A stretch of 32,000 nt of DNA from Erysipelothrix inopinata. GTDB lineage: Bacteria > Bacillota_I > Bacilli_A > Erysipelotrichales > Erysipelotrichaceae. Both the position numbers and the translations under genes were made by a program. The notes beneath the pieces are model-generated. The model was not told where the DNA came from and made no database searches. It saw only the letters and a program-made list of their open reading frames with translations. Numbering within the stretch: the first letter of the stretch is position 1; every line of letters begins with the position of its first letter. The DNA lies in the NCBI RefSeq assembly GCF_014396165.1, contig NZ_CP060715.1, positions 930,001 to 962,000 on the forward strand, in the 5' to 3' direction. Below are positions 3,461-27,884 of the stretch, in pieces.

Positions 3461-4172
3461 AGTACTCTTGGTTGAAGATGAAGAGAATATTCGAAAAGGA
3501 ATCGGATATATGCTCGATTGGAAAAAGCTCAACATTGTTTTAGTTGCTCAAGCGTGGAATGGAAAACAGGGACTTGAATACATTGAAGAGTTCAAACCAG
3601 ATCTCGTGATTACTGACGTAAGAATGCCATTTGTTGATGGCCTCGAAATGATTCGTGAAGGTAAAAAAATTCATGACTTCGAGTCGATAATTATTTCTGG
3701 CTTTAGTGAATTCGACTATGCGAAAGAAGCACTTGTTTTAGGAGTGAGTGAGTATATTCTTAAACCTATTGACTATGAGGAACTTTCAGAAGCTATCATG
3801 AGAATTAAACCTAAAATAAAGGCCAAGAATCCACAAACAAGTTCTGACCCGGCAATTCGTTGTCAGTCTCAGAAAATGAAACGAATTATTAAGTATATTG
3901 ATGATAACTTAAGTCAGAAATTAACCCTAAGTGATCTCTGTGATATTTTTGAAATTTCGAGTACATCGATGAATGATTTATTCAAACAAGAAGTGAATAC
4001 CACTGTGAATGATTTTGTAAATCAAAAAAAGATTAACAAGGCAATCCAACTCATTAGAGAAGAGGATTATAAAATATATGAAATTGCTGAAATGTTGGGG
4101 TACAGTGACTATAAATATTTTAACTATGTCTTTAAAAAATATACAGACGTAACTCCCTCTAAATTCAAATAA
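3453..4172 (+). CDS. Response regulator with AraC-type HTH output (YesN-like)
   Basis: N-terminal receiver (VLLVEDEE, DLVITDVRMP) and C-terminal AraC HTH (IYEIAEMLGYSDYKYFNYVFKKYTDVTPSKF). GGGAGG lies 6 nt upstream of ATG 3453. Confidence 0.85.
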   Translation: MIKVLLVEDEENIRKGIGYMLDWKKLNIVLVAQAWNGKQGLEYIEEFKPDLVITDVRMPFVDGLEMIREGKKIHDFESIIISGFSEFDYAKEALVLGVSEYILKPIDYEELSEAIMRIKPKIKAKNPQTSSDPAIRCQSQKMKRIIKYIDDNLSQKLTLSDLCDIFEISSTSMNDLFKQEVNTTVNDFVNQKKINKAIQLIREEDYKIYEIAEMLGYSDYKYFNYVFKKYTDVTPSKFK

Positions 4173-4221: not shown

Positions 4222-4297
4222 GCACCCATGGCGCAACGGATAGCGCGTTTGATTCCGGTTCAAAAGGCTGCAGGTTCGATTCCTGTTGGGTGTACCA
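4222..4297 (+). tRNA. tRNA-Arg (anticodon CCG), CCA encoded
   Basis: Hand-folded cloverleaf. Acceptor GCACCCA/TGGGTGT (G1-U72 wobble). D-stem GCGC/GCGC with loop AACGGATA. Anticodon stem TTTGA/TCAAA with loop TTCCGGT (anticodon CCG). Variable loop AGGCT. T-arm GCAGG-TTCGATT-CCTGT. Discriminator A, then CCA. Confidence 0.85.
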
Positions 4298-4572: not shown

Positions 4573-5679
4573 ATGAAAAAGAAATTTAGTTTATATTTAT
4601 TAGCACTAATACTAATGGTAACGCCCGTTGCGCTCAATGTAGCCGCTGATAATGATCCATTTGAAGGGCAAATTGTATTAAATCAAAGCGTCGTAAAATT
4701 AGAGTATGAAGACGGCGAAGTAATTGGAAAACTAGAGGTAAACTTACCTTTAGATGAATTTGGTCCTTGGCAAAGATTGATGTCAGAAACTGAAAATAGC
4801 ACTTGGACTGCGCATGATGACAACCTTCTTACTGATTTGATGAATGGCGGAAATGTATTTAGAGAAACACCATATACCTATTATGGGTATTACATATTGT
4901 ATAAGGATGGAACTAAAGAAATCGGATATGAAAGAACACTAACTTACGAAATGTTACATCAAAAAGAGATTGATAACAACAAGCGTATCGATGTGGTTGA
5001 AGCCTACTTTGGTGAAACTTCTCAAATGATACTAAACTATCAATTAAAAGACATTGATGGTAGTACATCTTTAATTCGCTCAGATGTGACTTACGGAAAA
5101 TATGATTTGAAGTACTTAGACGAAATTAATGTAAAAGGTGAAACACAGCCAATCGCCCAAGACTTAATATCAAAATATATTTTAGTGGATTCAAGCACAC
5201 CAATGAGTTATGCATATACTAAAGAAAACAGTGCTTTTGATGTGAACTTAAGACTTCCAATTTATACAATCCAATTTCAAGATGAAGAAGGAAATAGCTT
5301 AAGAGCAAATGAGACTATTCAAGCAACTTTAGATAAAGCATTTGAATACGTTGCTCCTGGAATAGAGGGATATGAAATAAAAGGTATGAATAAAATTTCA
5401 AGCCCCTATACAAATGAAGATAAGGAGTTTACGCTTGTTTACAGTAAAAAAGTGACTGACTCTGTTGGTCCTGAAGATCCAGTTGACCCAGTAGACCCTG
5501 TAAAACCTGTCGAACCCTCGAAGCCGACCAATCCGGTTAAGCCAACGAAAAAGGTTAAATCTAACGAAACATTACCGGGTACGGGGATTGGGAATTCAGA
5601 CAATCTTGCTGCCGCAACATTTATTATCACAGGAATCACTTTCTTAGGCGTATCAGTATTAAAGAAAAAAGAATTATAA
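4573..5679 (+). CDS. LPXTG-anchored surface protein with a C-terminal MucBP-like domain
   Basis: Signal peptide MKKKFSLYLLALILMVTPVALNVAA. Pro-rich wall spacer PVDPVDPVKPVEPSKPTNPVKP. LPGTG motif followed by a hydrophobic helix and a KKKEL tail. AGAGGTGA SD upstream of the ATG. Confidence 0.8.
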   Translation: MKKKFSLYLLALILMVTPVALNVAADNDPFEGQIVLNQSVVKLEYEDGEVIGKLEVNLPLDEFGPWQRLMSETENSTWTAHDDNLLTDLMNGGNVFRETPYTYYGYYILYKDGTKEIGYERTLTYEMLHQKEIDNNKRIDVVEAYFGETSQMILNYQLKDIDGSTSLIRSDVTYGKYDLKYLDEINVKGETQPIAQDLISKYILVDSSTPMSYAYTKENSAFDVNLRLPIYTIQFQDEEGNSLRANETIQATLDKAFEYVAPGIEGYEIKGMNKISSPYTNEDKEFTLVYSKKVTDSVGPEDPVDPVDPVKPVEPSKPTNPVKPTKKVKSNETLPGTGIGNSDNLAAATFIITGITFLGVSVLKKKEL

Positions 5680-6211: not shown

Positions 6212-6961
6212 ATGAATCGATTAACACATCATTTTGACTTGCTAACTGAAGCTGAAAAGCGCGTTTGCAATTATATAGTTCACAATTTTGATACCGTTAG
6301 CAAAATGAGTATCAATGATTTAGCTGATAAATCATATACTTCAAAGACTGTTGTAATAAACATGTCTCAAAAATTAGGTTTTGAAGGTTATACAGATTTG
6401 CGCTATTACTTAAAGGATATGGAATCGGAAGTATTGTCTGTAGAAACAACAGAAGTTATAAAAGATAATATCCTCAAAAATGCATCGATGACTGGAAATA
6501 TCTTAAATTACGAAAAATTAAAAAGCGCTTCGGTTAAAATATTAGAAGCAAAAACAGTTTATATTGCAGCTCGCGGCACATCAAAATCTATTGCGAATCA
6601 CCTAGCACATCTCCTTCTTACAATGGGAGTCAAATGCATGCTTATTGATGATTATAATTTATTGTCTATTATTGCTAACCAGGTCGACCCTAGAGAATTA
6701 TTCATATTGATTTCGTTATCAGGCGAAACTCGAAAAATTGTTGATGCGGCGAAAATTGTTAAAGCACGTCAAGGTGAAATAATTTCGCTGACCGCATTCA
6801 CACATAACTCGCTTGCACGATTATCTGACTTAAGTCTCTTTGCAGCTACTGAATCAGTAGAGACCGCAACGAATGATGATATATCTCGAATCGGTTTTTT
6901 TGTAATTTGTGAGATGCTGGCACATCAAGTAAAATTTGAGATTCAAGAAAGAAAAAAATGA
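6212..6961 (+). CDS. RpiR/MurR-family transcriptional regulator (HTH_6 + SIS domain), GlvR-like
   Basis: N-terminal HTH (MSINDLADKSYTSKTVVINMSQKLGFEGYTDLRYYL). SIS-type core (VYIAARGTSKSIANHLAHLL, ILISLSGETR). AAGAGGA SD. Confidence 0.85.
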   Translation: MNRLTHHFDLLTEAEKRVCNYIVHNFDTVSKMSINDLADKSYTSKTVVINMSQKLGFEGYTDLRYYLKDMESEVLSVETTEVIKDNILKNASMTGNILNYEKLKSASVKILEAKTVYIAARGTSKSIANHLAHLLLTMGVKCMLIDDYNLLSIIANQVDPRELFILISLSGETRKIVDAAKIVKARQGEIISLTAFTHNSLARLSDLSLFAATESVETATNDDISRIGFFVICEMLAHQVKFEIQERKK

Positions 6962-6992
6962 CCTAAGTCACATTGAGTGACCTAGGTTTTTT
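6962..6992 (+). terminator. Terminator hairpin that doubles as an inverted-repeat operator candidate
   Basis: CCTAAGTCAC-ATTGA-GTGACCTAGG (10-bp stem, one mismatch) followed by TTTTTTCTT. It begins 1 nt after the RpiR stop. Confidence 0.6.
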
Positions 6993-7092
6993 CTTAGGTA
7001 AGGATAATTCTCTTTTAAGTATCATTTAAATACCAATCCCTCTATGATGAATTTATAAGGCAGTATTGATTGCTATAGATAGAGGAGAAAGC

Positions 7093-8415
7093 ATGAGAAA
7101 AGAACAAAATATCACCATTGTCGGTGCGGGAAGTTCGAGAACACCTGCACTCGTCGGATCGATTGTGGACTATAAAGATCGATTTAAAATTAAAAAGATT
7201 GTATTTTTTGACATACACACAAAAAGAACGTCAAAAATGGAGACATATATTCGTTTGGTATTGAAACAGGAAATTCCAAACGCAACTGTAATCTTCACCA
7301 CTGATAAAACGGTCGCATATGAAGATGCGGATGCTGTTTTAGTACAAATGAGAGCGGGAAACACGGAAATGAGAAGCCTTGATGAGAAAATCCCACTAAA
7401 ACATGGACTTGTTGGTCAAGAAACATGTGGTCCTGGAGGATTTGCTTATGGTATGAGATCAATTGGCGCAATGATAGAAATGGTCAATGATATTCGGGCA
7501 GTTAACAAAGATGCATGGATCTTAAATTATACTAATCCTGCAGCAATCGTTGCATTAGCACTTGATAAAGTATTCCCAGATGACAAGCGCATCTTGAACT
7601 TGTGTGATCAACCATACTCTATGATGCGTTCCTACGCAAAAATATTAGATAAACCGCAACATGATTTAAAGTGTACTTATTTTGGTCTAAATCATTTTGG
7701 ATGGTTTACCGAAATTGAAGATTACCAAGGTAACAGTTATTATAACCAAGTTAAAGAATACTTAACAGGTCATGAATTTAAACCTTATAACGCAGAACAA
7801 AGATCTGCATCCTGGTTAGAAACATATAAAAGAGTCAATAAATATTTATCCTTCTTTCCAGAGTATCTTCCAAATACCTATCTACAGTACTACTTCTTTC
7901 CAGAGGAGATTGTAGAGGAGAGTGATCCAAACTATACACGTGCTGATGAAGCAAGAGATAGCCGAGAAAAAGAGGTATTTGAACTCTGTGCTAGTGCGGA
8001 AGGCCGTGATGATTTAGGAAATCTGGAAATTTTAAAAGGTTCAGTGTTTGGAAATCTCATGATTGAAGTTGCTGAATCGATCCTTTATGATTTAAACAAT
8101 GAATTTGTAATCATGGTAAGAAATAATAACCTTATTCCTAACTTTCCTGCAGAAGCAATTGTAGAACTAAGTGGACAATTGGGGTTAGATGGTGCAAAGG
8201 CATATCCTTACGGAGCTATTAAACCATTTTATAAGGGATTGATGGAGGGGCAATATGCATATGAGTTGCTAACAGTAGAAGCTTTCTTAGAGAAAGATTA
8301 TACAAAAGCTCTGGAGGCATTAACAATCAATAGAACCATAGTCGATCCCCAAAAAGCAAAAGCAGTACTTGATGATCTGATGGAAGCAAATAAAAATTAT
8401 TGGACACTAACTTAG
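7093..8415 (+). CDS. Glycoside hydrolase family 4, 6-phospho-alpha-glucosidase-like (GlvA/MalH/AglB group)
   Basis: NAD-binding ITIVGAGSSRTP. GQETCGPGGFAYGMRSIG is nearly identical to my recollection of B. subtilis GlvA. Metal and catalytic motifs NLCDQP and GLNHFGWF are present. AGAGGAG SD precedes ATG 7093, and the track start 7066 has no SD. Confidence 0.85.
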   Translation: MRKEQNITIVGAGSSRTPALVGSIVDYKDRFKIKKIVFFDIHTKRTSKMETYIRLVLKQEIPNATVIFTTDKTVAYEDADAVLVQMRAGNTEMRSLDEKIPLKHGLVGQETCGPGGFAYGMRSIGAMIEMVNDIRAVNKDAWILNYTNPAAIVALALDKVFPDDKRILNLCDQPYSMMRSYAKILDKPQHDLKCTYFGLNHFGWFTEIEDYQGNSYYNQVKEYLTGHEFKPYNAEQRSASWLETYKRVNKYLSFFPEYLPNTYLQYYFFPEEIVEESDPNYTRADEARDSREKEVFELCASAEGRDDLGNLEILKGSVFGNLMIEVAESILYDLNNEFVIMVRNNNLIPNFPAEAIVELSGQLGLDGAKAYPYGAIKPFYKGLMEGQYAYELLTVEAFLEKDYTKALEALTINRTIVDPQKAKAVLDDLMEANKNYWTLT

Positions 8416-8468
8416 AAAGTTGAATTAGTCGAAAAACACGATTGTCTAAAGAATAATTAAATATATTC

Positions 8469-8510
8469 AAGAGATTTATTTACATGAATTAAATAAATCT
8501 CTTTTTTATT
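8469..8510 (+). terminator. Strong intrinsic terminator after the GH4 gene
   Basis: Perfect 14-bp stem AAGAGATTTATTTA/TAAATAAATCTCTT with a 7-nt loop, then TTTTTTATTTT. Confidence 0.8.
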
Positions 8511-8581
8511 TTCCAAGGAAAACTTAGACAAAATAGTTGATTATTGAGCTGAAAAATTGAAAAAAAACAGAAATTTTAGTT

Positions 8582-8609
8582 ACCTAGGTAAGATGTAGTG
8601 ACCTAAGTC
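8582..8609 (+). promoter_or_regulatory. Operator-like motif pair shared with the 6961-7006 region
   Basis: ACCTAGGTAAGAT-GTA-GTGACCTAAGTC. The same two words (GTGACCTAGGT/ACCTAAGTCAC and TTAGGTAAGGAT) occur between the RpiR and GH4 genes. Confidence 0.3.
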
Positions 8610-8642
8610 CTTTAAGGTGTAAACGAATGATAAGTCAAGAGT

Positions 8643-8656
8643 TGTAAACGCTTACC
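8643..8656 (+). promoter_or_regulatory. cre (CcpA catabolite-responsive element) candidate
   Basis: TGTAAACGCTTACC matches TGWAANCGNTNWCA at 13 of 14 positions, 35 nt upstream of the EIICB start. A weaker TGTAAACGAATGAT lies at 8618-8631. Confidence 0.55.
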
Positions 8657-8690
8657 GCCGATGTTAAATTAAATGCACAGGAGGAGAATT

Positions 8691-10244
8691 ATGAAGAAGT
8701 ATAGTGAACAGATTCAACGATTTGGACGCTCATTGCTTTTACCAATTGGGGTAATGGCACCCGTTGGATTACTACTCGGAATTAGTGGCGCATTTTCTCA
8801 AAAATATATGATTGAGCTGCTACCTTTCTTGGGGAATCCAGCTGTTAGCCAAATTTTTATTGGTATACGTACAATGAGTGATGTTATCTTTAATAACTTA
8901 CCGCTATTATTTGCAATGGGAGTTGCATATGGAATGTCGCGTAAGGATAAAGGAATTGCAGTATTTTCATCAGTACTTGCATATTTAATATTGATGATTG
9001 TCATGAATATTTGGTTAACAAATACAGGAAACCTTATCAAAGAAGGAAATATTGCTGTTGGTGGACAAGCCATGGTGCTTGGTATTCAAACTGTAAACGT
9101 TAACGTATTTGGAGGGATAATAGCTGGTCTTATTGCATCTTGGGCAACAGACAAGTATTATGATCTTCAACTTCCAATGGCATTCGCGTTCTTTGCAGGT
9201 AGAAAATCAGTTCCTCTGATCTCTATGGGTGTAGCAATTGTATTTGGACTTATAATTCCTTTTTTCTGGGAATATCTAATCGCATTCTTTGCAAGTATGT
9301 CGGGATTATTACTGAGTCCAATTTTAGGCCAAATATTAAACGGGGTTATTAACCGTTTGCTTATTCCTTTCGGATTGCATCATGTTTGGAATGCAATGCT
9401 CCGTTTCACAGAGGCTGGTGGAGTCTATTTAATTAATGGAGTTGAGTACATTGGTTACCTAGATGCGATGAACGAAATCCTATTTAATTTGGGACCAGAT
9501 AGTGAGTATTGGGCAATGATGCCAGAATTAACTCGATTTGGAGCTCAAAACCAGATGGTTCGTGCATTGTTTGTATTCCCAGCAATAGGACTTGCAATGT
9601 ATCATACTGCATATAATGAGAATAAAGCTATGGCGAAAGGTTTGATCATTACCAGTGTTGCAACTGCATTCTTTGGTAATGTTACCGAACCATTAGAGTT
9701 TACTTTCTTATTTATTGCTCCAGGACTCTTCTTAATATATTCTGTTTTAGGTGCTATTGGTGGTATTGCTCTTTACTTCATGAATACTGCTGTTGGTTAT
9801 ATTCGTGGAACGATATTTGATTTTATAATATTTGGAGTAATGTTTAAGAATTCAAACTGGATAAATATTGTGATAGTCGGAGTTATAGAAGCGGTATTAA
9901 TATACTTCATATTCAAATGGTGGATTGTTAAGTTTAATGTTCCGACACCGGGACGAGAAGACTCTGCAGGGACAGATAATATATTAATTACTGAACGACG
10001 TTTCGATGAAGTAGCTGCACTCGTGATTGAAGGATTAGGTGGAGCATCAAATATAGGAAACGTAGAAAATTGTATAACAAGACTTCGAGTCGACTTTAAA
10101 GATAAAACGAAAATTAATAATGATTTACTTAAGAAATCTGGATGTTCAGGTGTGTTCTTCCCATCAAGCGGACACATTCATGTTGTTTACGGACCTATGG
10201 TTGAATTTGTAAGAAATGCTGTCGATGATCAACTTGGACGATAA
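8691..10244 (+). CDS. PTS glucose/maltose-family EIICB component (MalX/GlvC-like)
   Basis: Polytopic EIIC with IPFGLHHVWN. C-terminal EIIB with the phospho-Cys motif NCITRLRV. AGGAGGAG SD precedes ATG 8691, and the track start 8673 sits inside the SD. Confidence 0.85.
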   Translation: MKKYSEQIQRFGRSLLLPIGVMAPVGLLLGISGAFSQKYMIELLPFLGNPAVSQIFIGIRTMSDVIFNNLPLLFAMGVAYGMSRKDKGIAVFSSVLAYLILMIVMNIWLTNTGNLIKEGNIAVGGQAMVLGIQTVNVNVFGGIIAGLIASWATDKYYDLQLPMAFAFFAGRKSVPLISMGVAIVFGLIIPFFWEYLIAFFASMSGLLLSPILGQILNGVINRLLIPFGLHHVWNAMLRFTEAGGVYLINGVEYIGYLDAMNEILFNLGPDSEYWAMMPELTRFGAQNQMVRALFVFPAIGLAMYHTAYNENKAMAKGLIITSVATAFFGNVTEPLEFTFLFIAPGLFLIYSVLGAIGGIALYFMNTAVGYIRGTIFDFIIFGVMFKNSNWINIVIVGVIEAVLIYFIFKWWIVKFNVPTPGREDSAGTDNILITERRFDEVAALVIEGLGGASNIGNVENCITRLRVDFKDKTKINNDLLKKSGCSGVFFPSSGHIHVVYGPMVEFVRNAVDDQLGR

Positions 10245-10274
10245 CAAAGGAAAATAAAGGAAACGGAGGAAAAC

Positions 10275-11462
10275 ATGTATTTATATTCTAAGAATATTTA
10301 CTTTCCTAATCAAATAAAAAGGGAAGGATATCTAAAAATTGAGGAAGGTGTTATTACAGGGTTTGTTACTAACATTGGTTCAGAAAGTTTTGAAGATTAT
10401 GAAAACTATCTAATAATACCTGGATTTATAGATCAACATCTTCATGGATGGGGTACAGGTTCGTTTGGAAATGACAAAACTCATCATGGGTTGTTAGAAA
10501 TGAAAAAACATCTTCCATCAGTTGGAGTGACAAGTTTCTTGGCAACATCTGGTGCTGAGCCAATTGAAGATTTAATTCAAGGAATTAAGACAAGCTGCGA
10601 GATAATGGAAACACAGAAAGATGATGGAGCAAGTTTACTAGGCGTTCATCTCGAGGGTCCATTTGTAAGTCCTAAGCAAAAAGGCATGATGCGCGAAGAA
10701 TTTTTTAGAGATCCATCCGTTTCACTAATGGAAACATTCGTAGAAACTCAAACGGTGCCAAACGCAATTAAGTTGATGACTATGGCACCTGAATTACCCG
10801 GATCAAAAGAAGTAATAAAATTTTGTAAGGCAAATGGAATTCAAATAAATATTGGACACTCACACGCTACTTTTGAAGAAATAGCAAATCTCAAAGAATA
10901 TGGATTAGGTGGTGTAACCCACATGTTTAGCGGCATGAGAGGATTTCATCATCGTGAGCTGGGCGTAGCCGGAACAGCACTATTCTTTGATGACTTGTAC
11001 TGTGAATTTGCGAAGCAAACGGGAATGACTGTGAAACCGGAAGCATTCCAAATAGCATATCGACTAAAAGGACCTGATCGTATTATTATGACTACAGATA
11101 ATACAGCGATGGCACAGCTTACGCAAGAGCGATATCATTATATACGAAAACAAACATTTATACCTGATGGGGATTGGTTTGTTATCCGAAATGATGATGG
11201 AAGTGAGCAACGATATGATAGAACAGATTATGAACAAGTTAAACATCTTGAATTAAGTTATATTGAATCAATTCAAAATTTAATAAAAAATGTTCATCCA
11301 TCAGTGCATGATGTTATTAAGATGACATCTGAAAACTGCGCAAAGTATCTAAATGTATATGATCGTAAAGGATCAATCGAAGTAGGGAAAGATGCAGATT
11401 TGCTTATCATTGATGAAGACTTTAACATCCATGCAACATATTGTATGGGGAAGAAATACTAA
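10275..11462 (+). CDS. nagA: NagA-family amidohydrolase (N-acetylglucosamine-6-phosphate deacetylase-like), paralog 1
   Basis: 395 aa. Carries HxH (IDQHLHG), GVHLEGPF, IGHSHAT, THMFSGM and MTTDN metal/catalytic motifs. The true substrate is not established. Confidence 0.75.
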   Translation: MYLYSKNIYFPNQIKREGYLKIEEGVITGFVTNIGSESFEDYENYLIIPGFIDQHLHGWGTGSFGNDKTHHGLLEMKKHLPSVGVTSFLATSGAEPIEDLIQGIKTSCEIMETQKDDGASLLGVHLEGPFVSPKQKGMMREEFFRDPSVSLMETFVETQTVPNAIKLMTMAPELPGSKEVIKFCKANGIQINIGHSHATFEEIANLKEYGLGGVTHMFSGMRGFHHRELGVAGTALFFDDLYCEFAKQTGMTVKPEAFQIAYRLKGPDRIIMTTDNTAMAQLTQERYHYIRKQTFIPDGDWFVIRNDDGSEQRYDRTDYEQVKHLELSYIESIQNLIKNVHPSVHDVIKMTSENCAKYLNVYDRKGSIEVGKDADLLIIDEDFNIHATYCMGKKY

Positions 11463-11479
11463 AACCCGGAGGATAAATC

Positions 11480-11962
11480 ATGTTTAGTAAAATTTTCAAA
11501 CCAAAACCTTTAGATTTGGTATCTCCCATGATGGGAAAGGTAATTGCAATGGAACATGTGAATGATCCTGTATTTTCGGAAAAGGCGATGGGAGACGGAT
11601 TCGCTATAGAGTTCACTGACGGAAACGTTTTTGCTCCCGTTGACGGTGAGGTTGTAGCATTATTTCCTACAAATCATGCGATTGGTATTAGGGGGAATGA
11701 TCGTAATGAATTCTTAATACATATTGGTCTTGATACTGTGAATTTCAAAGGAGAAGGATTTAAAGCACATGTTGAAATGGGGCAACAAGTTAAGAAAGGT
11801 GACTTACTTTTAGAAGTAAATCACAAATTTTTCAAAGATAATGATGTGGATATGACATCTCCTGTTATAGTAACAAATTTAAATGGAAGACGTGTTATTT
11901 TGTTAAAAGATGGAGAAAATGTAGAATCAGGAACACCTGGAATTATTGCGATTAAGGTTTAG
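11480..11962 (+). CDS. PTS EIIA(Glc)-type component
   Basis: 160 aa with the two conserved His contexts FPTNHAIGIR and EFLIHIGLDTV. Starts 17 nt after the preceding gene. Confidence 0.85.
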   Translation: MFSKIFKPKPLDLVSPMMGKVIAMEHVNDPVFSEKAMGDGFAIEFTDGNVFAPVDGEVVALFPTNHAIGIRGNDRNEFLIHIGLDTVNFKGEGFKAHVEMGQQVKKGDLLLEVNHKFFKDNDVDMTSPVIVTNLNGRRVILLKDGENVESGTPGIIAIKV

Positions 11963-11970
11963 GAGGAAAT

Positions 11971-12741
11971 ATGGGAACAATTAAAGAGTTATCAAGAGAG
12001 ACTGTACGTGATAATCGACTCATAGTACTAGTTGGTACTTTAGGATATGCTTCTGTCACGGCATTAATTTCTGGAATCTTTCAAGTTATAAATTTATGGT
12101 GGATTGGAATTATACCGATGACACTATGTGTTTACGCATATTTATATAAAATCCATGAGTTAAGTCTAAAAATGGTCAAACATCAAGAAATAACAATAAC
12201 CATGTTTTTTGAGAAACCGTTTGGGTCTAAGAAAACAACGATAGTTTTCCTAGGATATATTATATGGGCGCTGATTACAGCTGCAACTCTGTTTTTAATT
12301 ACGATTGTTCCTAAAATGGGGATTTTATTACTCATTCTAATCTTTTGTATGCTGGTATTTGGTAATGAAGTAAGTAACTTCGTCATGTTACAAGATGATC
12401 TTGATGAAGGTATTTTAAAAAGCTATAAACAAGCAATTAACAGTGTTCTTACAAACAGATCACTTTTTGGACATAATATGTTGCGTTCCTTTACTGCAAT
12501 GGTTCAAGGTGTCATTCTCGTTGTTTGTACTAATGTATTTGTTTATGGACCTCAGATTCAAAAAGCACTTCAGTTGGATGTATCCACATCTGAAAGTACA
12601 ATCCGAATGATATTTTCAAGTCCATTAAGTTCATTTGTACAAACTGTTGGAATTCAAGTAGTAATCCTATACATACTCTTTATTAGTACAATAGTCACTA
12701 CAACTTATGCTAAGCAAAAACAAATAATCAAACTACATTAA
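11971..12741 (+). CDS. Polytopic membrane protein of unknown function (possibly DUF975-like)
   Basis: 256 aa with about 6 hydrophobic helices. GGAGGAAAT SD, 8 nt after the EIIA stop. I recognised no catalytic motif. Confidence 0.6.
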   Translation: MGTIKELSRETVRDNRLIVLVGTLGYASVTALISGIFQVINLWWIGIIPMTLCVYAYLYKIHELSLKMVKHQEITITMFFEKPFGSKKTTIVFLGYIIWALITAATLFLITIVPKMGILLLILIFCMLVFGNEVSNFVMLQDDLDEGILKSYKQAINSVLTNRSLFGHNMLRSFTAMVQGVILVVCTNVFVYGPQIQKALQLDVSTSESTIRMIFSSPLSSFVQTVGIQVVILYILFISTIVTTTYAKQKQIIKLH

Positions 12742-12778
12742 CAATTGCTTCGCTTCTCAGTGAAGCAATTGTTTTAAA
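12742..12778 (+). terminator. Intrinsic terminator inside the carbohydrate island
   Basis: CAATTGCTTCGCT-TCTC-AGTGAAGCAATTG (13-bp stem, one G-U) followed by TTTTAAAAATT. It starts immediately after the stop at 12741. Confidence 0.7.
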
Positions 12779-12796
12779 AATTGAAAAGGAGAAATT

Positions 12797-13990
12797 ATGA
12801 TTTATTATTCGAAAAATATTGTCACACCTCGCGGAGTCATTGAAGGGTTTCTGAAAGTATCTAATGGCAAGATTGTAGGTGTTTCAAATGAGTGCAAAGA
12901 ACCCTTTATAGACTATACTGATGAAATAATTTTGCCTGGTTTTATTGATGTTCATGTACATGGTTGGGGTCGGGGATCATATATGTTTGAAAAGACACCA
13001 GAGTCTATCGTGTTGATGGCAGAAGATCAAGCTAAGGAAGGTGTAACTGGATTTTTAGCAACTACAGTTACGGATTCCTTGGAAGAAACATATAGATATA
13101 TAGAAGCAGCAAATGAAATATATGGAAAACCAATTCACGGTTCTAAGTTCATGGGAGTCCATTTAGAGGGGCCATTTATGAATAAAGAACATAAAGGTAT
13201 GCAGAAGGAAGAATACTGTATTAATCCGGACTTAAGCTTGATGAAGTCTTTTGTCGACCTCCAAGTAGAACCGCGAATGATAAAACTTATGACAATTGCT
13301 CCAGAATTGGATGGATCAAAAGAAGTTATCAAGTATTGCAAAGAGAATGGAATTCAATTATCTATTGGGCACTCTGGTGCTACATTTGATGTTATTTCTG
13401 AACTTAAAGAATACGGACTTGGCGGTGTTACCCACATGTTTAGTGGCATGAAGGGAATTCATCATCGTGAGCTAGGTGTGGTAGGAACAGCACTATATTA
13501 TGATGACTTAATGTGTGAGTTCGCAAAACAAACTGGAATGACAGTAAGACATGAGGCATTTGATATTGTATATCGTATCAAAGGGGCAGATGGTATTTTT
13601 ATGACAACCGATTGCGCAGGACTAGCAAATCGAAGAGAGCCATCCTATCATTATGTCAGAAAAATTACATTCTCTCGTGAAGGTAATGAATTTATAATGA
13701 AACATGACAGTGGTGAAGTTGAAAGAATCAATATTGATGACTATTCTTCATTGAGAACGTTGGAGATGGGATATATTGATTCAATTAAAAACATGTTGAG
13801 ACATACTCCAATGACTTATCCCGAATTAGCAAAAATCACGAGTTTAAATCCTGCTCGATATATAGGGATGGATGATCACAAAGGTAAAATTCAAGAAGGT
13901 TATGATGCGGACTTAACGATAGTCACTCCTCATATGACGCTATGCGAGACTGTTGTAGAAGGAGAGCGTGTCGTCGTTGTTGAGAGATAA
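12797..13990 (+). CDS. nagA: NagA-family amidohydrolase, paralog 2
   Basis: 397 aa with the same motif set (IDVHVHG, GVHLEGPF, IGHSGAT, THMFSGM, MTTDC). Roughly half its residues are identical to paralog 1 by eye. Confidence 0.75.
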   Translation: MIYYSKNIVTPRGVIEGFLKVSNGKIVGVSNECKEPFIDYTDEIILPGFIDVHVHGWGRGSYMFEKTPESIVLMAEDQAKEGVTGFLATTVTDSLEETYRYIEAANEIYGKPIHGSKFMGVHLEGPFMNKEHKGMQKEEYCINPDLSLMKSFVDLQVEPRMIKLMTIAPELDGSKEVIKYCKENGIQLSIGHSGATFDVISELKEYGLGGVTHMFSGMKGIHHRELGVVGTALYYDDLMCEFAKQTGMTVRHEAFDIVYRIKGADGIFMTTDCAGLANRREPSYHYVRKITFSREGNEFIMKHDSGEVERINIDDYSSLRTLEMGYIDSIKNMLRHTPMTYPELAKITSLNPARYIGMDDHKGKIQEGYDADLTIVTPHMTLCETVVEGERVVVVER

Positions 13991-15180
13991 TGAAACGATT
14001 TAGTGATCGTACGGTAGTAGTACTATTTGTTATCTATGGATTTGAAGCCGTGGCGGCAAATTTAGCACATCCAATAACACCGAATTTAATCGAATACCGC
14101 AATATGCCTAATTATATGTTCGGAGTAGTATTTGCAGCAATGTCCCTAACAAATTTTTTGTTATCACCCTTTTGGGGGAATATATGTAATCATATTGAGT
14201 CAAGAAAATTGCTAATGATTAGCGGTATTGGTTATGCTGTTGGCCAAGGCATGTTTGGAATAGCAACGAATCCGTTGGTGATGACGATGGCTCGCTTTGT
14301 ATCAGGTTTATTTGTATCATGTATGAGCATCGCTGCAACATATTATGTTATTCTACACTCACCTCCAGAAGAAAAATCCAGAAATTTAACAATCACAATT
14401 ACGACATTTACAGTAATGGGAACTTTTGGATATTTCTTAGGGGGATACTTAGGGAACATAAATATTTTTATTCCATTCCTACTTCAATGTATTCTACTTA
14501 GCTTATCGGGAATTTTATACTATATATTTCTTAAACCAAATTCTGTAGTGAAAGTGGCTAACTACAAGGAACTTATACATAAGTCAAACCCAGTTCAATC
14601 ATTCATAGACATTGGACCAAGTCTCAGCCCACTAGTTATTTCACTCTTTGCTACGGTTTTATTTGCATCGCTAGCATCAACATCATTTACACAAAACTAT
14701 GCTTATTACTTACAAAATACATTGGGTATGAGTCCATTAATTAATGGAATAACCAAAGGTCTTGTTGGTATATTTGCGACAATTTTCAATTTTACGATCA
14801 CGCTAATGATTTTAAGGAAAAATGATGTAGAAAAGCATTTAAGTTATCTCTTTGCAGTATTAGCTTCAGTTCTTACAATTATCGGATTATACCGATCTAA
14901 TCCAACCATTTTTATTGTATTGGGAATCGTTGTTATGGTTTTAGATACAATCCAAGTATCAATTTTGCAAGACAGAAATGCTGCTTACGCAACACCTGAG
15001 AATCAAGGTGTTATGTTAGGCATGCACAATGCAATGAAGGCGTTAGGAATGATTGGTGGATCTTTAATTTCTGGATTCATATATGATTTCAATCCATTTT
15101 ATCCTTTCGTGATGACGTTAATTCTTTATGTGCTAGCTATGTTCAGTGCAAACAAATTAAGGAAAAGGAGTTGTTTATGA
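13990..15180 (+). CDS. MFS transporter (MFS_1, drug/metabolite-type)
   Basis: 396 aa with about 12 TM helices. The start overlaps the NagA-2 stop (TAATG). Confidence 0.75.
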   Translation: MKRFSDRTVVVLFVIYGFEAVAANLAHPITPNLIEYRNMPNYMFGVVFAAMSLTNFLLSPFWGNICNHIESRKLLMISGIGYAVGQGMFGIATNPLVMTMARFVSGLFVSCMSIAATYYVILHSPPEEKSRNLTITITTFTVMGTFGYFLGGYLGNINIFIPFLLQCILLSLSGILYYIFLKPNSVVKVANYKELIHKSNPVQSFIDIGPSLSPLVISLFATVLFASLASTSFTQNYAYYLQNTLGMSPLINGITKGLVGIFATIFNFTITLMILRKNDVEKHLSYLFAVLASVLTIIGLYRSNPTIFIVLGIVVMVLDTIQVSILQDRNAAYATPENQGVMLGMHNAMKALGMIGGSLISGFIYDFNPFYPFVMTLILYVLAMFSANKLRKRSCL

Positions 15181-16364
15181 AAAGCAGTTTTAACACAATA
15201 AATTGTCGGCGTAATGATGGATCAGTTAAATGGCAACGATTTATTGAACAATGCCCCAAAGTAGAAGAGGGAATCATTCCATTTACTTTGGCGGATTGCG
15301 ATTTTGAACATCCTAAAGAACTACGAGAAGGGCTTCAAAATTATTTGGACACAATGGTTTTTGGGTATACAATTCCAACAAAAAAGTACTATGATTCGGT
15401 CAAAAGTTGGTTTTTTAGAAGACATCATTGGGAACTTGATGAAAAATCGATACTTCATTCACCTGGGGTATTACCGGCCATTTCAAATTCAATTCAAGCT
15501 TTTACTAAAGAACAAGATAGTATACTAATTTTATCTCCAGTTTATTATCCTTTTAAAAGAATAATCGAATCTTTGAATCGAAATGTTACTGAAGTTAACC
15601 TTATCTACGAAAATGGTGTATATAATTTGGATGAGAATTCTTTAGAGAAGGCAATCCAGCAAAATAAAGTTAGGGTAATTATTTTATGTTCGCCACATAA
15701 TCCTATCGGAAAAGTATGGAAGAGAGAAGAATTGGAAGTAATTGTAGAACTGTGTGTTAAATATAATATTCTAATTATTGACGATGAAATTCATCATGAC
15801 TTGATTATGCCAGGTCACCAACATCTTTGCCTACCAACTCTTAGTGAAGAAGCCAAAGCGCGAACAATTTTACTGACATCAACAAGTAAAAGCTTTAATT
15901 TAGCCGGGTTGCGTACGTCTATCGTAATAATAGAGAACGACGAACTAAGATCTAAATATGAAAACTATGCCCGACACATGGAGTCGGGAATCTTATCGGT
16001 AAATGCATTTGGATTAAAAGCAACCGAGATTGCATATAATGAGTGTGGGGACTGGTTGGATTCATTTATTTTACATATTTTTGAAAATCATAAATTAGTT
16101 AAGGTTTTTTTTGAAACTAATTTACCACAAATCCATGTATTACCATTGGAGGGAACATACCTGCAATGGATTGATTTTAATCAGTTAAATCTTGATGAGG
16201 AACAATTAGTTGATAGGATGGAAAAATTGTCCAACGTGTATTGCGATCATGGCAAGCTATTTGGTGCGAATGGTAAGGGATTCTTTAGGATGAACCTTGC
16301 GTATCCACAAGATATAATTATTAACGCTCTTAAAAGAATCGAAAAAGAATTCAAAGTTAATTGA
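15177..16364 (+). CDS. PLP-dependent MalY/PatB-family beta C-S lyase (class I/II aminotransferase fold)
   Basis: PLP-lysine context TSTSKSFNLAGLR, SPHNPIGKVW, IIDDEIHHDL. AAGGAG SD lies 6 nt before ATG 15177. ATGA overlap with the MFS stop. Confidence 0.8.
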   Translation: MKSSFNTINCRRNDGSVKWQRFIEQCPKVEEGIIPFTLADCDFEHPKELREGLQNYLDTMVFGYTIPTKKYYDSVKSWFFRRHHWELDEKSILHSPGVLPAISNSIQAFTKEQDSILILSPVYYPFKRIIESLNRNVTEVNLIYENGVYNLDENSLEKAIQQNKVRVIILCSPHNPIGKVWKREELEVIVELCVKYNILIIDDEIHHDLIMPGHQHLCLPTLSEEAKARTILLTSTSKSFNLAGLRTSIVIIENDELRSKYENYARHMESGILSVNAFGLKATEIAYNECGDWLDSFILHIFENHKLVKVFFETNLPQIHVLPLEGTYLQWIDFNQLNLDEEQLVDRMEKLSNVYCDHGKLFGANGKGFFRMNLAYPQDIIINALKRIEKEFKVN

Positions 16365-16381
16365 TAACTAACAATATAGAG

Positions 16382-16408
16382 ACGAAGTACAAACTTCGTT
16401 TTTTTTTA
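16382..16408 (+). terminator. Intrinsic terminator closing the carbohydrate island
   Basis: ACGAAGT-ACAA-ACTTCGT followed by T9. Confidence 0.8.
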
Positions 16409-16655: not shown

Positions 16656-19025
16656 ATGAAAAAAAGGGTTCGGATACTCCAATTGTTTTTAGTACTTTCT
16701 TTAATCCTAACGGGATTTCTCGTTACACCAACAAAGGCAGATGATACACGCTTGTTTGCTGGGATAAATCGATTTGAAGAATCGTCGCCAGCAACAATTT
16801 TTCATCGAAATATTCGCTACAAGAAGAATATTGAACCACTCCCAGAAGGGGTTCATCTTGAGTTGGAATATTACAATAAAGATGATGTTATGATACGTAA
16901 AGATGATTACTATACAATAGATAAAGAAGCTAATACGTATAATATTAAATTAACACTGGACTTGTGGACAGATAAAATTACGTATGTAAAAGTATATTCT
17001 GTAGATCCTAGTATTACTGAAGAAATTGAGCTTGGAAACAGTGCCAGTCAGTTAATGCGTATACCGGTCAACTTTCATGCTGAAGGAGGAAAATTTTCCG
17101 ATGGGAACAGTGAAAATCTCACGGTATCTTATCAAGGTGGAAAAGTATATCAAGCAGATATCTATGAAGAGCCTACTCACGAGAAATATGCATTCAGTCA
17201 TTGGGTATATTTAGGGGGACGTTGGGAGGATGAGCAAGTTCATAAGACAGCGATTAACCCCAATAAGGTTCGTGATTTTTATGCGGCGTGGGAAATTCCA
17301 GTTCATTTTGAGACTAATGGTGGCTCGGACATGGCCTCTATCATCGTTGAAGGGCAAAATAATTATATTCCCGAACCTATTGAACCCACTAAAGATGGAT
17401 CAATATTTCAAGGGTGGTATGCAGATAAAGAACTCACTGAAAAGTGGGAATTCTATCTCGATGAAGTTAGAGAAGAACGAACGCTCTATGCTAAATGGAA
17501 AAGTGAAACCTTTGAAGTTAAATTCGAAACAGATGGTGGAAGTCCAGTTGAGGCTCAAACAATAGAAGTTGGGACAAAGATAACTGATCCAGGGAAACCA
17601 ACAAAAGATGGGTATGAGTTTGAAGGGTGGTATCGTGACAATGGCTATCAAACGCAGTGGGATTTCAATAGCGATACTGTTGTTGAAGATACCGTACTTT
17701 ATGCTAAATGGAAACGTATCGATGTCTATTACACGGTAACTTTTGATACTCAACTAAATGAACCCCCAACAACAAAATCAGTCTTAGAGAATACTCCAGT
17801 TGAAAAACCTATTGATCCAACACGTCCAGGATATAAGTTTGATGGATGGTATACTGACACAAAAGGTAAAAACTTATGGAACTTTGAAACCGTTATTACA
17901 GAGGATAAGACTCTATATGCAAAGTGGTCTGTTATTACTCATACGATTGAATTTGAAACGAATGGTGGAAGCAATATCAAAAGCGTAAAAGTTAATGAAG
18001 GTAAACCGGTCAAGGAGCCCAAAGAACCGGTCAAAGATGGATATAAATTTGATGGTTGGTATCAAGATGATTTATTAACTATTTCGTGGGACTTTAGCGC
18101 GCCAATTACAGATTCAATGACACTTTACGCTAAATGGGAAAGAATTACATATGAAGTAGAATTCGTGACTAACGGGGGGAAGGAAATTCAAAGTATACAT
18201 GTTGGTTCAGGAGAAACTTTACTATTACCTGAACCACCGACTCGAGATAATTATGAATTTGAGAATTGGTATAAAGATGAGGAACTTACCGAAATATGGC
18301 TAGATGAACCTGTTTTTAATGATTTAAAACTCTATGCTAAGTGGAATAAAGTAGATGTTTACTACATCGTAACTTTTGACTATCTCTATAATGATTTAAT
18401 TCATACCGAGATTGTCTTAGAAAATACTATTTTAGCGTATCCAGAAGAGCCTGTGAGAGATGGATATACATTTAGTGGATGGACTCTTGATAAAGCCGGA
18501 AATATCCCGTGGGATAATAAGAAACCAGTCAATGACAATGTCACCCTTTATGCAAAATGGGAAAAGGAAGTCGTATATTACACGGTTACCTTCTATCCAG
18601 AGAATGGTGAAACAGTAAAAATTGAAACTGTTGCAGGAGGTACGACAGTTACTAAACCCACGGATCCAGAAAGAAATGGGTATCTTTTTATGGGGTGGTA
18701 TCTTGATGTAGAGAATGAGGCCCTTTGGAATTTTGATGAAAAAGTAAATCAAAATCAGACATTGTTCGCAAAATGGGCATTACAGATTGAGGGAGAAGAG
18801 AAACCAACAGAAGAAAGACCAACAGAAGAAAATCCAATTGCTGAGGATTCATCAGGTGAGATAATAATTCCAGAAAAAATATCAACTGATCAAGACAAAG
18901 AGGGGAAATTACCAACGACTGGTATTGCTAGCTACGGAATTTATGTTGGTATTAGCTATATAACTTTAGGGGTCATTTTAATTGTACTGAGATTTAAAAT
19001 TCGTAAAGTATGGTCACACCGATAG
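16656..19025 (+). CDS. LPXTG-anchored surface protein with Listeria-Bacteroides (Flg_new/InlB B-type) repeats
   Basis: Signal peptide, a unique N-terminal region of about 135 aa, and eight repeats of about 70 aa ending in LYAKW. Then LPTTG, a hydrophobic helix and a basic tail. Confidence 0.85.
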   Translation: MKKRVRILQLFLVLSLILTGFLVTPTKADDTRLFAGINRFEESSPATIFHRNIRYKKNIEPLPEGVHLELEYYNKDDVMIRKDDYYTIDKEANTYNIKLTLDLWTDKITYVKVYSVDPSITEEIELGNSASQLMRIPVNFHAEGGKFSDGNSENLTVSYQGGKVYQADIYEEPTHEKYAFSHWVYLGGRWEDEQVHKTAINPNKVRDFYAAWEIPVHFETNGGSDMASIIVEGQNNYIPEPIEPTKDGSIFQGWYADKELTEKWEFYLDEVREERTLYAKWKSETFEVKFETDGGSPVEAQTIEVGTKITDPGKPTKDGYEFEGWYRDNGYQTQWDFNSDTVVEDTVLYAKWKRIDVYYTVTFDTQLNEPPTTKSVLENTPVEKPIDPTRPGYKFDGWYTDTKGKNLWNFETVITEDKTLYAKWSVITHTIEFETNGGSNIKSVKVNEGKPVKEPKEPVKDGYKFDGWYQDDLLTISWDFSAPITDSMTLYAKWERITYEVEFVTNGGKEIQSIHVGSGETLLLPEPPTRDNYEFENWYKDEELTEIWLDEPVFNDLKLYAKWNKVDVYYIVTFDYLYNDLIHTEIVLENTILAYPEEPVRDGYTFSGWTLDKAGNIPWDNKKPVNDNVTLYAKWEKEVVYYTVTFYPENGETVKIETVAGGTTVTKPTDPERNGYLFMGWYLDVENEALWNFDEKVNQNQTLFAKWALQIEGEEKPTEERPTEENPIAEDSSGEIIIPEKISTDQDKEGKLPTTGIASYGIYVGISYITLGVILIVLRFKIRKVWSHR
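17064..18779 (+). repeat. Eight tandem, diverged coding repeats of about 210 nt (G(Y/W)x(F)xGW...LYAKW modules)
   Basis: Repeat boundaries were read from the translation (…FYAAWE, LYAKWK, LYAKWK, LYAKWS, LYAKWE, LYAKWN, LYAKWE, LFAKWA). Confidence 0.8.
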
Positions 19026-24112: not shown

Positions 24113-24166
24113 GTGGAATTCAGTGGCTTTCCTTGATAGACTATTCCATGTGAGGTGTTAAGAATT

Positions 24167-26477: not shown

Positions 26478-27323
26478 ATGATTAATTTAGAAAATGACTA
26501 TTTAAAAGTAACAATTGCACTAGATGGTGCTGAAATACGTTCAGTATTTGATAAGAGTAGAAGAATTGAAAGAATGTGGCATGCAGATGCAAAATACTGG
26601 GGGAGAACATCACCAGTATTATTTCCAATTGTAGGCCAAGTTAAAGGTGGTAGCTATACCTTCGATGAAAAGGATTATAACTTATCTCAACATGGATTTT
26701 TGCGTGATCAAAAATTCGAATTGGAATCTAGTAGTGAGAATCAAGTAAGTTTTATCTACGAAAGTCTTGATAAAATGAAAGATGTTTATCCATTTGAACA
26801 TCGTGTTACAATCACGTATACCCTAGTGGAAAAGACAGTTTCAGTTACGTGGAAAGTGGAGAACTGTGATACACAAGAAATGTACTATAGTATCGGAGCG
26901 CATCCAGCGTTTAATTTAAATGGCGATCACTATGAGTTTGAATTTGAAACACGTGGAGATGTTCGAGAGTTCAGTCTTAAACAAGGATTGGTTGCAAACA
27001 GTGAAATAATTGCTGTGAAACCAGTGGAAGTTAATGTTGAAAATCTTCAAAACGATGCCATTATTTATGATAATATCGATGCAGTATCTTTAATTAACCG
27101 CGATAACGGTGAAGTAACGCGATTAGCGTGTCCTGGATTTGACTATGTTGGACTTTGGATGCCTGTGACTGATGGAATTCTTGCACCATTTGTATGTATA
27201 GAACCTTGGATGGGAATTACCGACAGCTTTGATGAGTACGGTGATTTTAGAAATAAACTATCTATTAAGAAACTAGCGCCTGAACAACAAGAAAGTTATG
27301 AATATACGGTATCTTATCTATGA
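26478..27323 (+). CDS. Aldose 1-epimerase family protein (LacX-like)
   Basis: WGRTSPVLFPIVGQVKGG, LSQHGFLRD, YSIGAHPAFNL and CIEPW motifs typical of LacX/YihR-type mutarotases. GAGGTG SD, 25 nt after the upstream stop. Confidence 0.8.
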   Translation: MINLENDYLKVTIALDGAEIRSVFDKSRRIERMWHADAKYWGRTSPVLFPIVGQVKGGSYTFDEKDYNLSQHGFLRDQKFELESSSENQVSFIYESLDKMKDVYPFEHRVTITYTLVEKTVSVTWKVENCDTQEMYYSIGAHPAFNLNGDHYEFEFETRGDVREFSLKQGLVANSEIIAVKPVEVNVENLQNDAIIYDNIDAVSLINRDNGEVTRLACPGFDYVGLWMPVTDGILAPFVCIEPWMGITDSFDEYGDFRNKLSIKKLAPEQQESYEYTVSYL

Positions 27324-27790: not shown

Positions 27791-27884
27791 TACCTAAAAT
27801 TCGTAGAAAAGTATTGAAAATCATGTGCAAAATATCGCATATAGACTACGATATACCTGTGAAAGAAATAACAAGGAGGAAGTT

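Follow-up and report, generated by a model that had tools for sequence, protein, structure and literature searches.

Gene content and organization of the island

The island described here lies in a 32-kb stretch of the Erysipelothrix inopinata genome (32,000 nt, hereafter the window) and consists of nine co-oriented open reading frames (ORFs) on the plus strand between positions 6212 and 16364, which we assigned to families with Pfam and NCBIfam. The first gene (6212-6961) encodes an RpiR/MurR-family regulator with an N-terminal HTH_6 domain (PF01418) and a C-terminal SIS phosphosugar-binding domain (PF01380); its scores fall under every NCBIfam equivalog cut-off, so it has no named orthologue. 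The second gene (7093-8415) carries both Pfam domains of glycoside hydrolase family 4 (GH4) and is predicted to encode an NAD+/Mn2+-dependent 6-phospho-alpha-glycosidase of a distinct clade. Its likely start codon is the ATG at 7093, since the called orthologue has 440 amino acids. The phosphotransferase system (PTS) is represented by an EIICB of the glucose/maltose (MalX-like) family (8691-10244; Pfam PTS_EIIC and PTS_EIIB) and an EIIA of the glucose class (11480-11962; Pfam PTS_EIIA_1 and TIGR00830). Two further genes encode amidohydrolases similar to NagA, the N-acetylglucosamine-6-phosphate (GlcNAc-6-P) deacetylase, namely NagA-like A (10275-11462), a predicted metal-dependent de-N-acylase, and its paralogue NagA-like B (12797-13990), the two being 50% identical. 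A 256-residue all-helical membrane protein, here called Mem256, is encoded at 11971-12741. The last two genes encode a major facilitator superfamily (MFS) transporter of the drug/H+ antiporter type (13990-15180; Pfam MFS_1, with weak Tet/MdtG-like NCBIfam matches) and a PatB-family, pyridoxal phosphate-dependent C-S lyase (15177-16364). Domain and family scans found no nagB, sugar kinase or second glycosidase gene in the island or in the rest of the window.

Several junctions are tight, with gaps of 17 and 8 nt and overlaps at TAATG (13988-13992) and ATGA (15177-15180), and the island ends in an intrinsic terminator on the plus strand (16378-16408; stem 16382-16399, then T8). The first two junctions are loose (131 nt between rpiR and GH4, 275 nt between GH4 and EIICB) and each contains a hairpin. 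The one 3' of the GH4 gene (8460-8512, plus strand) is AT-rich and terminator-like, with 23-nt arms that are 83% complementary, followed by a T-run. Between the Mem256 and NagA-like B genes there is also a perfect 10-bp hairpin on the plus strand, CAATTGCTTC...GAAGCAATTG, followed by TTTT (12742-12775). Because of the loose first junctions and the internal hairpins, the island probably comprises three or four transcription units under one regulator rather than a single nine-gene operon. The layout is best seen as rpiR / GH4 / EIICB-NagA-EIIA-Mem256 (/) NagA-MFS-lyase, in which the third break is less sure.

An earlier reading of this DNA from its letters (the sequence-only reading) had described nine co-oriented genes of these families, a closing terminator, and the lack of nagB, of a kinase and of any hydrolase beyond GH4, all of which the coordinates, family assignments and scans bear out. 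The tight gaps and overlaps that it listed are also correct, but the first two junctions do not agree with its picture of one tight operon. Mem256 had been counted as the ninth gene and passed over by name, and it turns out to represent a new family.

Two double boxes occupy the leaders of the island. The first, ACCTAAGT-N11-ACCTAGGT (6961-6987), lies upstream of the GH4 gene and doubles as the hairpin directly after the rpiR stop codon, and the second, ACCTAGGT-N11-ACCTAAGT (8582-8608), lies 83 nt upstream of the EIICB start. The pattern ACCTARGT-N11-ACCTARGT has exactly two matches in the 32 kb, those in the GH4 and EIICB leaders, with 0 expected from 100 shuffles. Paired boxes also occur 5' of GH4 in the related Erysipelothrix loci L010, L011 and L013, with the EIICB-leader box kept in L010, and the Clostridium loci L014, L015 and L036 have a single TTACCTAGGTC 27-77 nt upstream of a malic-enzyme operon. 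The double box looks like a putative RpiR operator, and the boxes would tie the GH4 and EIICB genes together and, in Clostridium, bring in the malic-enzyme operon as well. A cre-like site in the EIICB leader (TGTAAACGCTTACC, 8643-8656, plus strand) with one mismatch to the consensus is weak evidence; the strict cre pattern has no match in this leader, and its sole match in the window lies elsewhere, at chance level.

Conservation of the system across genomes

To survey the system, we searched GTDB genomes, one for each species, with a GH4 alignment, which yielded 80 loci. Compared with the window GH4, their identities were bimodal, at 57-93% in 36 loci and 47-51% in the other 44. The 36 loci together with the window make up the clade set of 37, with hosts such as Erysipelothrix, Holdemania, Bulleidia, several Clostridium, Fonticella, Hungatella, Enterocloster, Wansuia, Proteiniclasticum, Maledivibacter and others. 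The remaining 44, classical 6-phospho-alpha-glucosidase loci from Bacillaceae, Enterobacterales, Vibrio and others, served as the control set.

Near the clade GH4 genes, we found an EIICB in 32/37 loci, an RpiR in 23/37 and an EIIA in 15/37. NagA-like genes lie next to GH4 in 25 of the 37 clade loci and in none of the 44 controls (Fisher p=3.5e-12). A malic enzyme is encoded in 7/37 clade loci and a Lyase_1/ADSL_C protein in 9/37, each with 0/44 in the controls, so that one or the other is present in 16/37 versus 0/44 (Fisher p=3.8e-7). Further partners are Mem256 homologues (9/37), MFS proteins (6/37) and PatB-like lyases (3/37). Neighbours seen at single loci (GH5, His_biosynth, ABC ATPase, Peptidase_S9, Dak2/CutC and an opposite-strand Beta_elim_lyase) looked unrelated and were discarded.

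The whole gene order and its flanks recur unchanged in a relative with a Mem256 counterpart of 76% identity. Gene order is kept in relatives, which speaks against the chance juxtaposition that the sequence-only reading had allowed for. The cluster is thus a genuine conserved system of many anaerobic Firmicutes (Erysipelotrichales, Clostridiales, Lachnospirales and Tissierellales), uncharacterised so far. Our literature search found no published account of such a system, that is, of bacillithiol, N-acetylglucosamine (GlcNAc)-malate or glucosamine (GlcN)-malate catabolism with GH4, PTS or malic enzyme, and a paper on Clostridium tertium (PMC10952124) does not mention GH4. The earlier statement that no characterised operon matches this island therefore stands, as we found no orthologous locus tied to a known substrate in the literature.

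A distinct clade of GH4 enzymes and PTS permeases

The window GH4 scores 151 bits with PF02056 and 151 bits with PF11975, has the NAD-binding GAGS at residues 11-14, and aligns end to end with the solved enzymes 6vc6, 6dux and 1u8x (400-359 bits), all of which are 6-phospho-alpha-glucosidases. Its catalytic motifs CDQP, GLNHFGW and NTYLQYY match those of the same three enzymes in the alignment. CDQP versus CDMP was tried as a clade marker and rejected, since most control loci have CDQP as well.

Strict specificity-determining positions between clade and control GH4s are few, and the clade can be recognized by the signature G-A-G-S-x-R-[TVI]-P. Position 16 is invariably Arg in the clade, whereas all 44 controls have W or Y there and the four solved relatives have F or Y. 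The aromatic residue of GlvA/MalH/AglB-type enzymes, two positions after the GxGS serine, is thus replaced by Arg16 in the window enzyme. A positive charge at a site that is otherwise aromatic would be a better match for an anionic aglycone than for a sugar; a search for literature on GH4 subsites that could place Arg16 found none. We also considered the Hoskinsella GH4 that is induced on gastric mucin (PMC13096917) and set it aside: it is 68-72% identical to characterised 6-phospho-alpha-glucosidases and probably belongs to another clade.

The permease follows the same division. The window EIICB is 52-97% identical to EIICBs near clade GH4s, versus 29-36% to those near the controls. Its best NCBIfam model, TIGR02004 (malX), reaches 378 bits, under the cut-off of 632, and TIGR02005 (alpha-glucoside IIBC), the model for a GlvC/AglA-type partner, gives 204 bits against a cut-off of 607. 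On these comparisons, the EIICB belongs to a subfamily specific to the clade system, apart from the classical ones.

NagA-like amidohydrolases with altered substrate contacts

By profile, both amidohydrolases belong with NagA, as A scores 270 bits and B 250 bits against the TIGR00221 cut-off of 226 (225.65). The metal and catalytic residues (HxH, HLEGPF, GH[ST], TH, [TS]D and HHR) are kept in 28/28 clade copies. The canonical substrate contacts, His, Asn and the GTL(A/G)GS loop, are all replaced. In 28/28 clade copies the His that contacts the anomeric OH becomes Thr (canonical DG[IVF]H to KQTG[MLI]T), the phosphate-binding Asn becomes Ser (canonical HL[YF]NAM to H[MT][FY]SGM), and LELSY, preceded by an 11-residue insertion, stands in for GTLAGS. 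Compared with canonical NagA, there is also an added Trp after HxHG. Among the best 120 database homologues, down to 50% identity, LAGS occurs in 0/120 and the full variant signature in 103/120. Every homologue with a sampled neighbourhood lies inside the same system, and public sources name these proteins NagA or generic amidohydrolase.

In Mycobacterium smegmatis, NagA binds the alpha-anomer, with the His hydrogen-bonding the anomeric OH and the Asn binding the phosphate, and the paper describes such contacts as shared by NagA enzymes in general (PMC6016474). For the C4-OH it gives a contact to a main-chain carbonyl (PMC6016474), which we would assign to the GTLAGS region (Leu backbone). Loss of the contact to a free alpha-anomeric OH would be expected for an enzyme acting on an intact alpha-glycoside. 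Such action would match the precedent of E. coli, where the GH4 ChbF cleaves GlcN-6-P glycosides only once ChbG has deacetylated them (PMC12791066).

Amidohydrolase genes vary among the relatives. In Erysipelothrix sp. HDW6A (L006:14222-15435), the NagA-like A gene is broken into two ORFs (123 and 272 residues), probably by a frameshift or as a pseudogene, and NagA-like B is intact. Holdemania (L032:13879-18635, likewise L035 and L037) has two more Amidohydro_1/3 genes after the Mem256 homologue, which makes three amidohydrolases per locus; genes for a PGA_cap (CapA-like) protein and for a protein with DUF362 and 4Fe-4S domains also lie on that side of the Mem256 homologue. Clostridium amazonitimonense (L098:6581-10194) has EIICB-RpiR-NagA-like without GH4 in 9-kb flanks, and a clade GH4 (P0072) is on record for the species; the system may be split between two loci there.

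Malic enzyme, a fumarate-lyase homologue and the nature of the aglycone

The malic enzyme gene appears in at least four gene orders, often overlapping its neighbour or 2-10 nt away from it, and is found again in L095 and L096. The arrangements are malic-RpiR-EIICB-GH4 in the Clostridium tertium/intestinale group, RpiR-GH4-malic-... in Erysipelothrix (2 nt apart or overlapping), RpiR-EIICB-GH4-malic in Fonticella, GH4-malic in Desnuesiella, EIICB-RpiR-GH4-NagA-malic-EIIA in Clostridiaceae M8S5, and ...GH4-NagA-EIIA-malic in Irregularibacter. Lachnospiraceae have, in place of the malic enzyme, a PurB-like gene of the fumarate-lyase superfamily between EIICB and GH4; its product keeps the SSTMPQKIN catalytic signature intact and scores under every named NCBIfam cut-off. 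Since malic enzyme and PurB-like lyase recur in clade loci only, these two non-homologous enzymes, which share malate/fumarate/2-substituted-succinate chemistry, point to a malyl aglycone.

A locus of an uncultured Clostridium sp. (L097:5067-10239) has the order Mga-like regulator/EIICB/PurB-like Lyase_1/HAD/NagA-like, without GH4. Here it may be the lyase that takes off the aglycone, as fumarate, and the layout fits a substrate that is a 2-O-substituted succinate.

Natural compounds of this kind are known. Bacillithiol is the alpha-glycoside of Cys-GlcN with L-malate, and its producers use the deacetylase/amidase paralogues BshB1 and Bca (PMC5790435). The alpha-glucosaminides of L-malate that occur in the bacillithiol literature are GlcNAc-Mal, GlcN-Mal and Cys-GlcN-Mal (PMC5790435). 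We conjecture that a division of labour like that of BshB1 and Bca may be a reason for the two NagA-like paralogues in the window and in Irregularibacter, and that a substrate of this family may be a reason for the recurring PatB-type C-S lyases.

At the Wansuia hejianensis locus (L042:12660-16895), a PatB-like lyase gene is followed by a gene for a TctC-family tripartite tricarboxylate transporter receptor and by ORFs of 144 and 494 residues. A carboxylate transporter receptor beside the system fits an acidic aglycone.

Mem256, the MFS transporter and the C-S lyase

Mem256 has no Pfam or NCBIfam match and no PDB fold match at E<=0.001. An AlphaFold2 model built from 17 sequences is all-helical, with a predicted local distance difference test (pLDDT) value of 86 and a predicted template modelling score (pTM) of 0.83. 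The protein is rare, with two clusters in 5.8 billion proteins and 21 representatives in 1.84 billion. Members at 22-29% identity sit right after EIIA in RpiR-EIICB-GH4-amidohydrolase loci, and by this distribution Mem256 represents a new, rare membrane-protein family dedicated to the clade system.

The MFS protein is a probable exporter. The C-S lyase falls into the PatB/MalY family, with 370 bits against the TIGR04350 cut-off of 340 and a fold-type I aminotransferase domain (PF00155). PatB-like genes occur in four lineages (window/L010, L042 and L092/L093), with 39% identity for the one in L092. Three proteins of the island, namely the C-S lyase, the MFS transporter and Mem256, are lineage-specific accessories. 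The idea of the sequence-only reading that three paradigms are fused here is therefore mere description, as two of the parts it joined, the C-S lyase (3/37) and the MFS protein (6/37), do not belong to the core.

Genomic surroundings of the island

The GC content of the island (0.33-0.37) is like that of its flanks. Upstream, window positions 1820-4172 hold a His_kinase/AraC-type two-component pair and an ABC permease gene, which are syntenic in the 76%-identity relative (L002); because of this synteny, we consider the island to be in a stable chromosomal context. An Rfam scan gave no riboswitch or leader for the island; its sole match in the window is a tRNA gene (RF00005, 64 bits) at 4222-4294 on the plus strand, between the AraC-type response regulator and MucBP genes. 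Putative surface-protein genes lie on both sides, one for a MucBP-domain protein upstream (4573-5679) and one for a 789-residue protein with seven Listeria-Bacteroides repeats downstream (16656-19025). Further downstream on the plus strand is a 765-residue ORF with a GTG start and no Pfam match (24155-26452); behind it come genes for an aldose 1-epimerase-like protein (26478-27323) and a bifunctional AdhE-type aldehyde/alcohol dehydrogenase (27825-30518).

Proposed function and alternatives

Taken together, we propose, with a probability of about 0.5, that the island is the E. inopinata form of a PTS catabolic system for an N-acyl-alpha-D-glucosaminide with a C4-dicarboxylate aglycone, most likely L-malate. 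As candidates for the substrate we consider GlcNAc-alpha-L-malate, GlcN-malate and bacillithiol (Cys-GlcN-malate). From the observed gene content, conservation, co-occurrence, residue patterns and operator sites, we infer every chemical step as well as the identity of the substrate.

Under this proposal, RpiR would act as a repressor on the paired ACCTAGGT boxes 5' of GH4 and EIICB, and a phosphosugar bound through the SIS domain would release it. EIICB and EIIA would import the glycoside and phosphorylate O-6 of its amino sugar. The two NagA-like enzymes would then strip the C-2 N-acyl group with the aglycone still attached, perhaps acetyl for one and cysteinyl for the other. GH4 would split the resulting 6-phospho-GlcN-alpha-malate into GlcN-6-P and malate by NAD+/Mn2+ redox-elimination. 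These products would be finished by enzymes encoded elsewhere in the genome; in relatives, a malic enzyme or fumarate-lyase homologue in the operon could take part. The PatB C-S lyase may dispose of cysteine or Cys-S-conjugates in the E. inopinata lineage, and the MFS protein and Mem256 may handle by-products or aid transport.

Several points weigh against this proposal. As it stands, the entire case is one of gene context and residue patterns. A malic enzyme or lyase gene is absent from the window, and both are absent within 8-9 kb of GH4 in 21/37 clade loci, the window included. The PurB-like lyase is not among the enzymes known to act on malate. That Arg16 faces the aglycone (+1) subsite is only supposed, and separate roles for NagA-like A and B are pure conjecture. 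Both NagA-like proteins lie above the nagA equivalog cut-off and might carry out ordinary GlcNAc-6-P deacetylation after cleavage, and the Clostridium tertium-type loci have GH4 without an adjoining amidohydrolase. The link between the C-S lyase and cysteine concerns few loci (3/37 and L092/L093). Finally, upkeep of the operon would require enough bacillithiol-type compounds in gut or animal habitats.

The alternative that survives best, which we hold to be unlikely, keeps the same PTS/de-N-acylation/GH4 chassis with an aglycone other than malate, such as another 2-substituted succinate, or an unrelated alcohol or thiol, as in a host or cell-wall alpha-GlcNAc glycoside or an S-glycoside; the malic enzyme and lyase would then serve some other linked purpose. 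GH4 chemistry accepts many leaving groups, thioglycosides among them. The window and 20 other clade loci lack both enzymes, PatB-like lyases recur, and the lyase is nearer to adenylosuccinate lyase and XcbD than to fumarase, which makes N- or S-succinyl compounds conceivable. Against this, the two non-homologous malate/fumarate enzymes are restricted to clade loci, where they appear in several gene orders and bacterial orders, and where the GH4 comes nearest to that of the window (85% and 80% identity), the malic enzyme is fused to the 3' end of the GH4 gene. Genes for a galactose, inositol, glycerate, polyol or amino-acid aglycone do not recur among the clade loci.

What the malate proposal and this alternative share, namely an N-acyl-alpha-glucosaminide that is de-acylated before GH4 cleavage, is quite probable in our judgement, since the two explanations are counted together here. 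The sequence-only reading had suggested the same sequence of PTS uptake, de-N-acylation and GH4 cleavage for an alpha-linked N-acetylhexosaminide, and the NagA-like subfamily with its lost anomeric-OH contacts fits it well. Of the substrates it guessed, GlcNAc-alpha-malate and bacillithiol-type compounds gain from the malic-enzyme and lyase co-occurrence, seen again in L095-L097; mucin alpha-GlcNAc, teichoic-acid and S- or N-linked amino-acid glycosides remain unsupported.

A different order of steps, in which GH4 directly cleaves a 6-phospho-GlcNAc-alpha-glycoside and the NagA-like proteins follow as ordinary GlcNAc-6-P deacetylases in a glv-type operon with nagA, appears decidedly improbable. 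The profile scores, the fully kept metal and catalytic residues and the public names all agree with it. However, the 28/28 clade copies lack the His, Asn and GTLAGS contacts described for NagA (PMC6016474), with LAGS also missing from the best 120 homologues, and the sole GH4 known to act on amino-sugar glycosides requires deacetylation first (PMC12791066). Two amidohydrolases per locus, and up to three in Holdemania, are also hard to square with one downstream step. A plain glvA-glvR-glvC-type operon for maltose or alpha-glucosides (sucrose isomers), with nagA, MFS and patB beside it by chance, agrees with the RpiR, GH4 and EIICB content and with the best solved relatives being 6-phospho-alpha-glucosidases, but it is largely refuted and very remote given the NagA-like link in 25 species and none of the 44 classical loci, the separation of both the GH4 and EIICB clades from the classical ones, and the operator boxes and tight junctions that bind the parts together.

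Returning to the malate proposal, we put forward a broader claim more tentatively, at slightly short of even odds: the system may be the first scavenging pathway for bacillithiol-family metabolites, present in Erysipelotrichales, Clostridiales, Lachnospirales and Tissierellales, with four new activities and a dedicated membrane-protein family. Within this claim, the activities would be a malyl-glucosaminide PTS, NagA look-alikes, a cysteinyl amidase among them, that de-acylate the 6-phospho-glycoside while it is still intact, a GH4 6-phospho-alpha-glucosaminyl-malate hydrolase, and a Lachnospiraceae PurB-like C-O lyase expelling fumarate.

Significance

Bacillithiol is a bacterial antioxidant, and we found no published route for its breakdown. 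If the proposal is true, it shows how other bacteria harvest the carbon, nitrogen and sulfur of bacillithiol-type compounds, and it adds a new substrate class both for GH4 and for the glucose-family PTS. It would also mean that a NagA-like subfamily is mis-annotated, as every specifically named protein among the best 120 homologues is called NagA. In addition, it would point to cleavage of a C-O bond by an adenylosuccinate-lyase homologue and give a function-linked context to a membrane-protein family without known relatives. Whatever the aglycone, the definition of the clade corrects the default labels 'maltose-6'-phosphate glucosidase' and 'GlcNAc-6-P deacetylase', with GH4 Arg16, the EIICB subfamily and the NagA-like motifs KQTGxT / HxFSGM / LELSY as markers. 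The compounds for a direct test of every step are already accessible by synthesis.

Comparison with known systems

The closest parallels are glvA-glvR-glvC (malA-glvR-malP) of Bacillus subtilis, aglA-aglB of Klebsiella and malH of Fusobacterium, which share with the island an RpiR-type regulator, a glucose-family EIICB and an NAD+/Mn2+ GH4 with the Cys-Asp, His and Tyr catalytic motifs. Unlike these systems, the island has a GH4 that scores 359-401 bits against the solved members, is 47-51% identical to those of the 44 classical loci and has Arg16 for W/Y/F; its EIICB belongs to another subfamily (29-36%), and its NagA-like and the clade's malic/lyase partners occur in 0/44 classical loci.

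The E. coli malX-malY pair likewise clusters a MalX-like EIICB with a PatB/MalY-type C-S lyase. The parallel, drawn in the sequence-only reading, is a distant one and involves an accessory gene: the EIICB is just 34% identical to MalX and the C-S lyase 28% to MalY. The two genes are also non-adjacent in the island, the lyase is present in 3/37 loci, and the E. coli locus has no GH4 or amidohydrolase.

With regard to the E. coli chb system, ChbG is a YdjC-family protein and not a NagA homologue of the amidohydrolase superfamily, and ChbF belongs to the 6-phospho-beta-glucosidase branch of GH4. The chb substrate is beta-linked and enters through a lactose/cellobiose-family PTS, whereas the island has Amidohydro_1 de-acylases, a glucose-family PTS and a GH4 nearest to alpha-specific enzymes. 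What the two have in common is the logic of a PTS-phosphorylated N-acetyl-hexosaminide that loses its N-acetyl group before GH4 cleavage (PMC12791066).

Canonical NagA (B. subtilis 2VHL, E. coli 1YMY and the M. smegmatis enzyme) shares with the island copies the amidohydrolase fold, the binuclear-type HxH/E/H/H/D and the phosphate-binding Arg of HHR. The island copies differ in the His->Thr and Asn->Ser changes, in the 11-residue insertion and LELSY for GTLAGS, and in the extra Trp.

The last comparison concerns BshB1 and BshB2 (Bca). These are LmbE-family Zn hydrolases that act on unphosphorylated substrates in bacillithiol producers, whereas the island enzymes are of the amidohydrolase superfamily, stand in a PTS catabolic context and come from lineages not known to make bacillithiol. 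The likeness lies in a paralogue pair working at the C-2 amide of GlcN-malate compounds, one a deacetylase and the other a cysteinyl-conjugate amidase (PMC5790435), and it is with this pair that we propose an analogy for NagA-like A and B.

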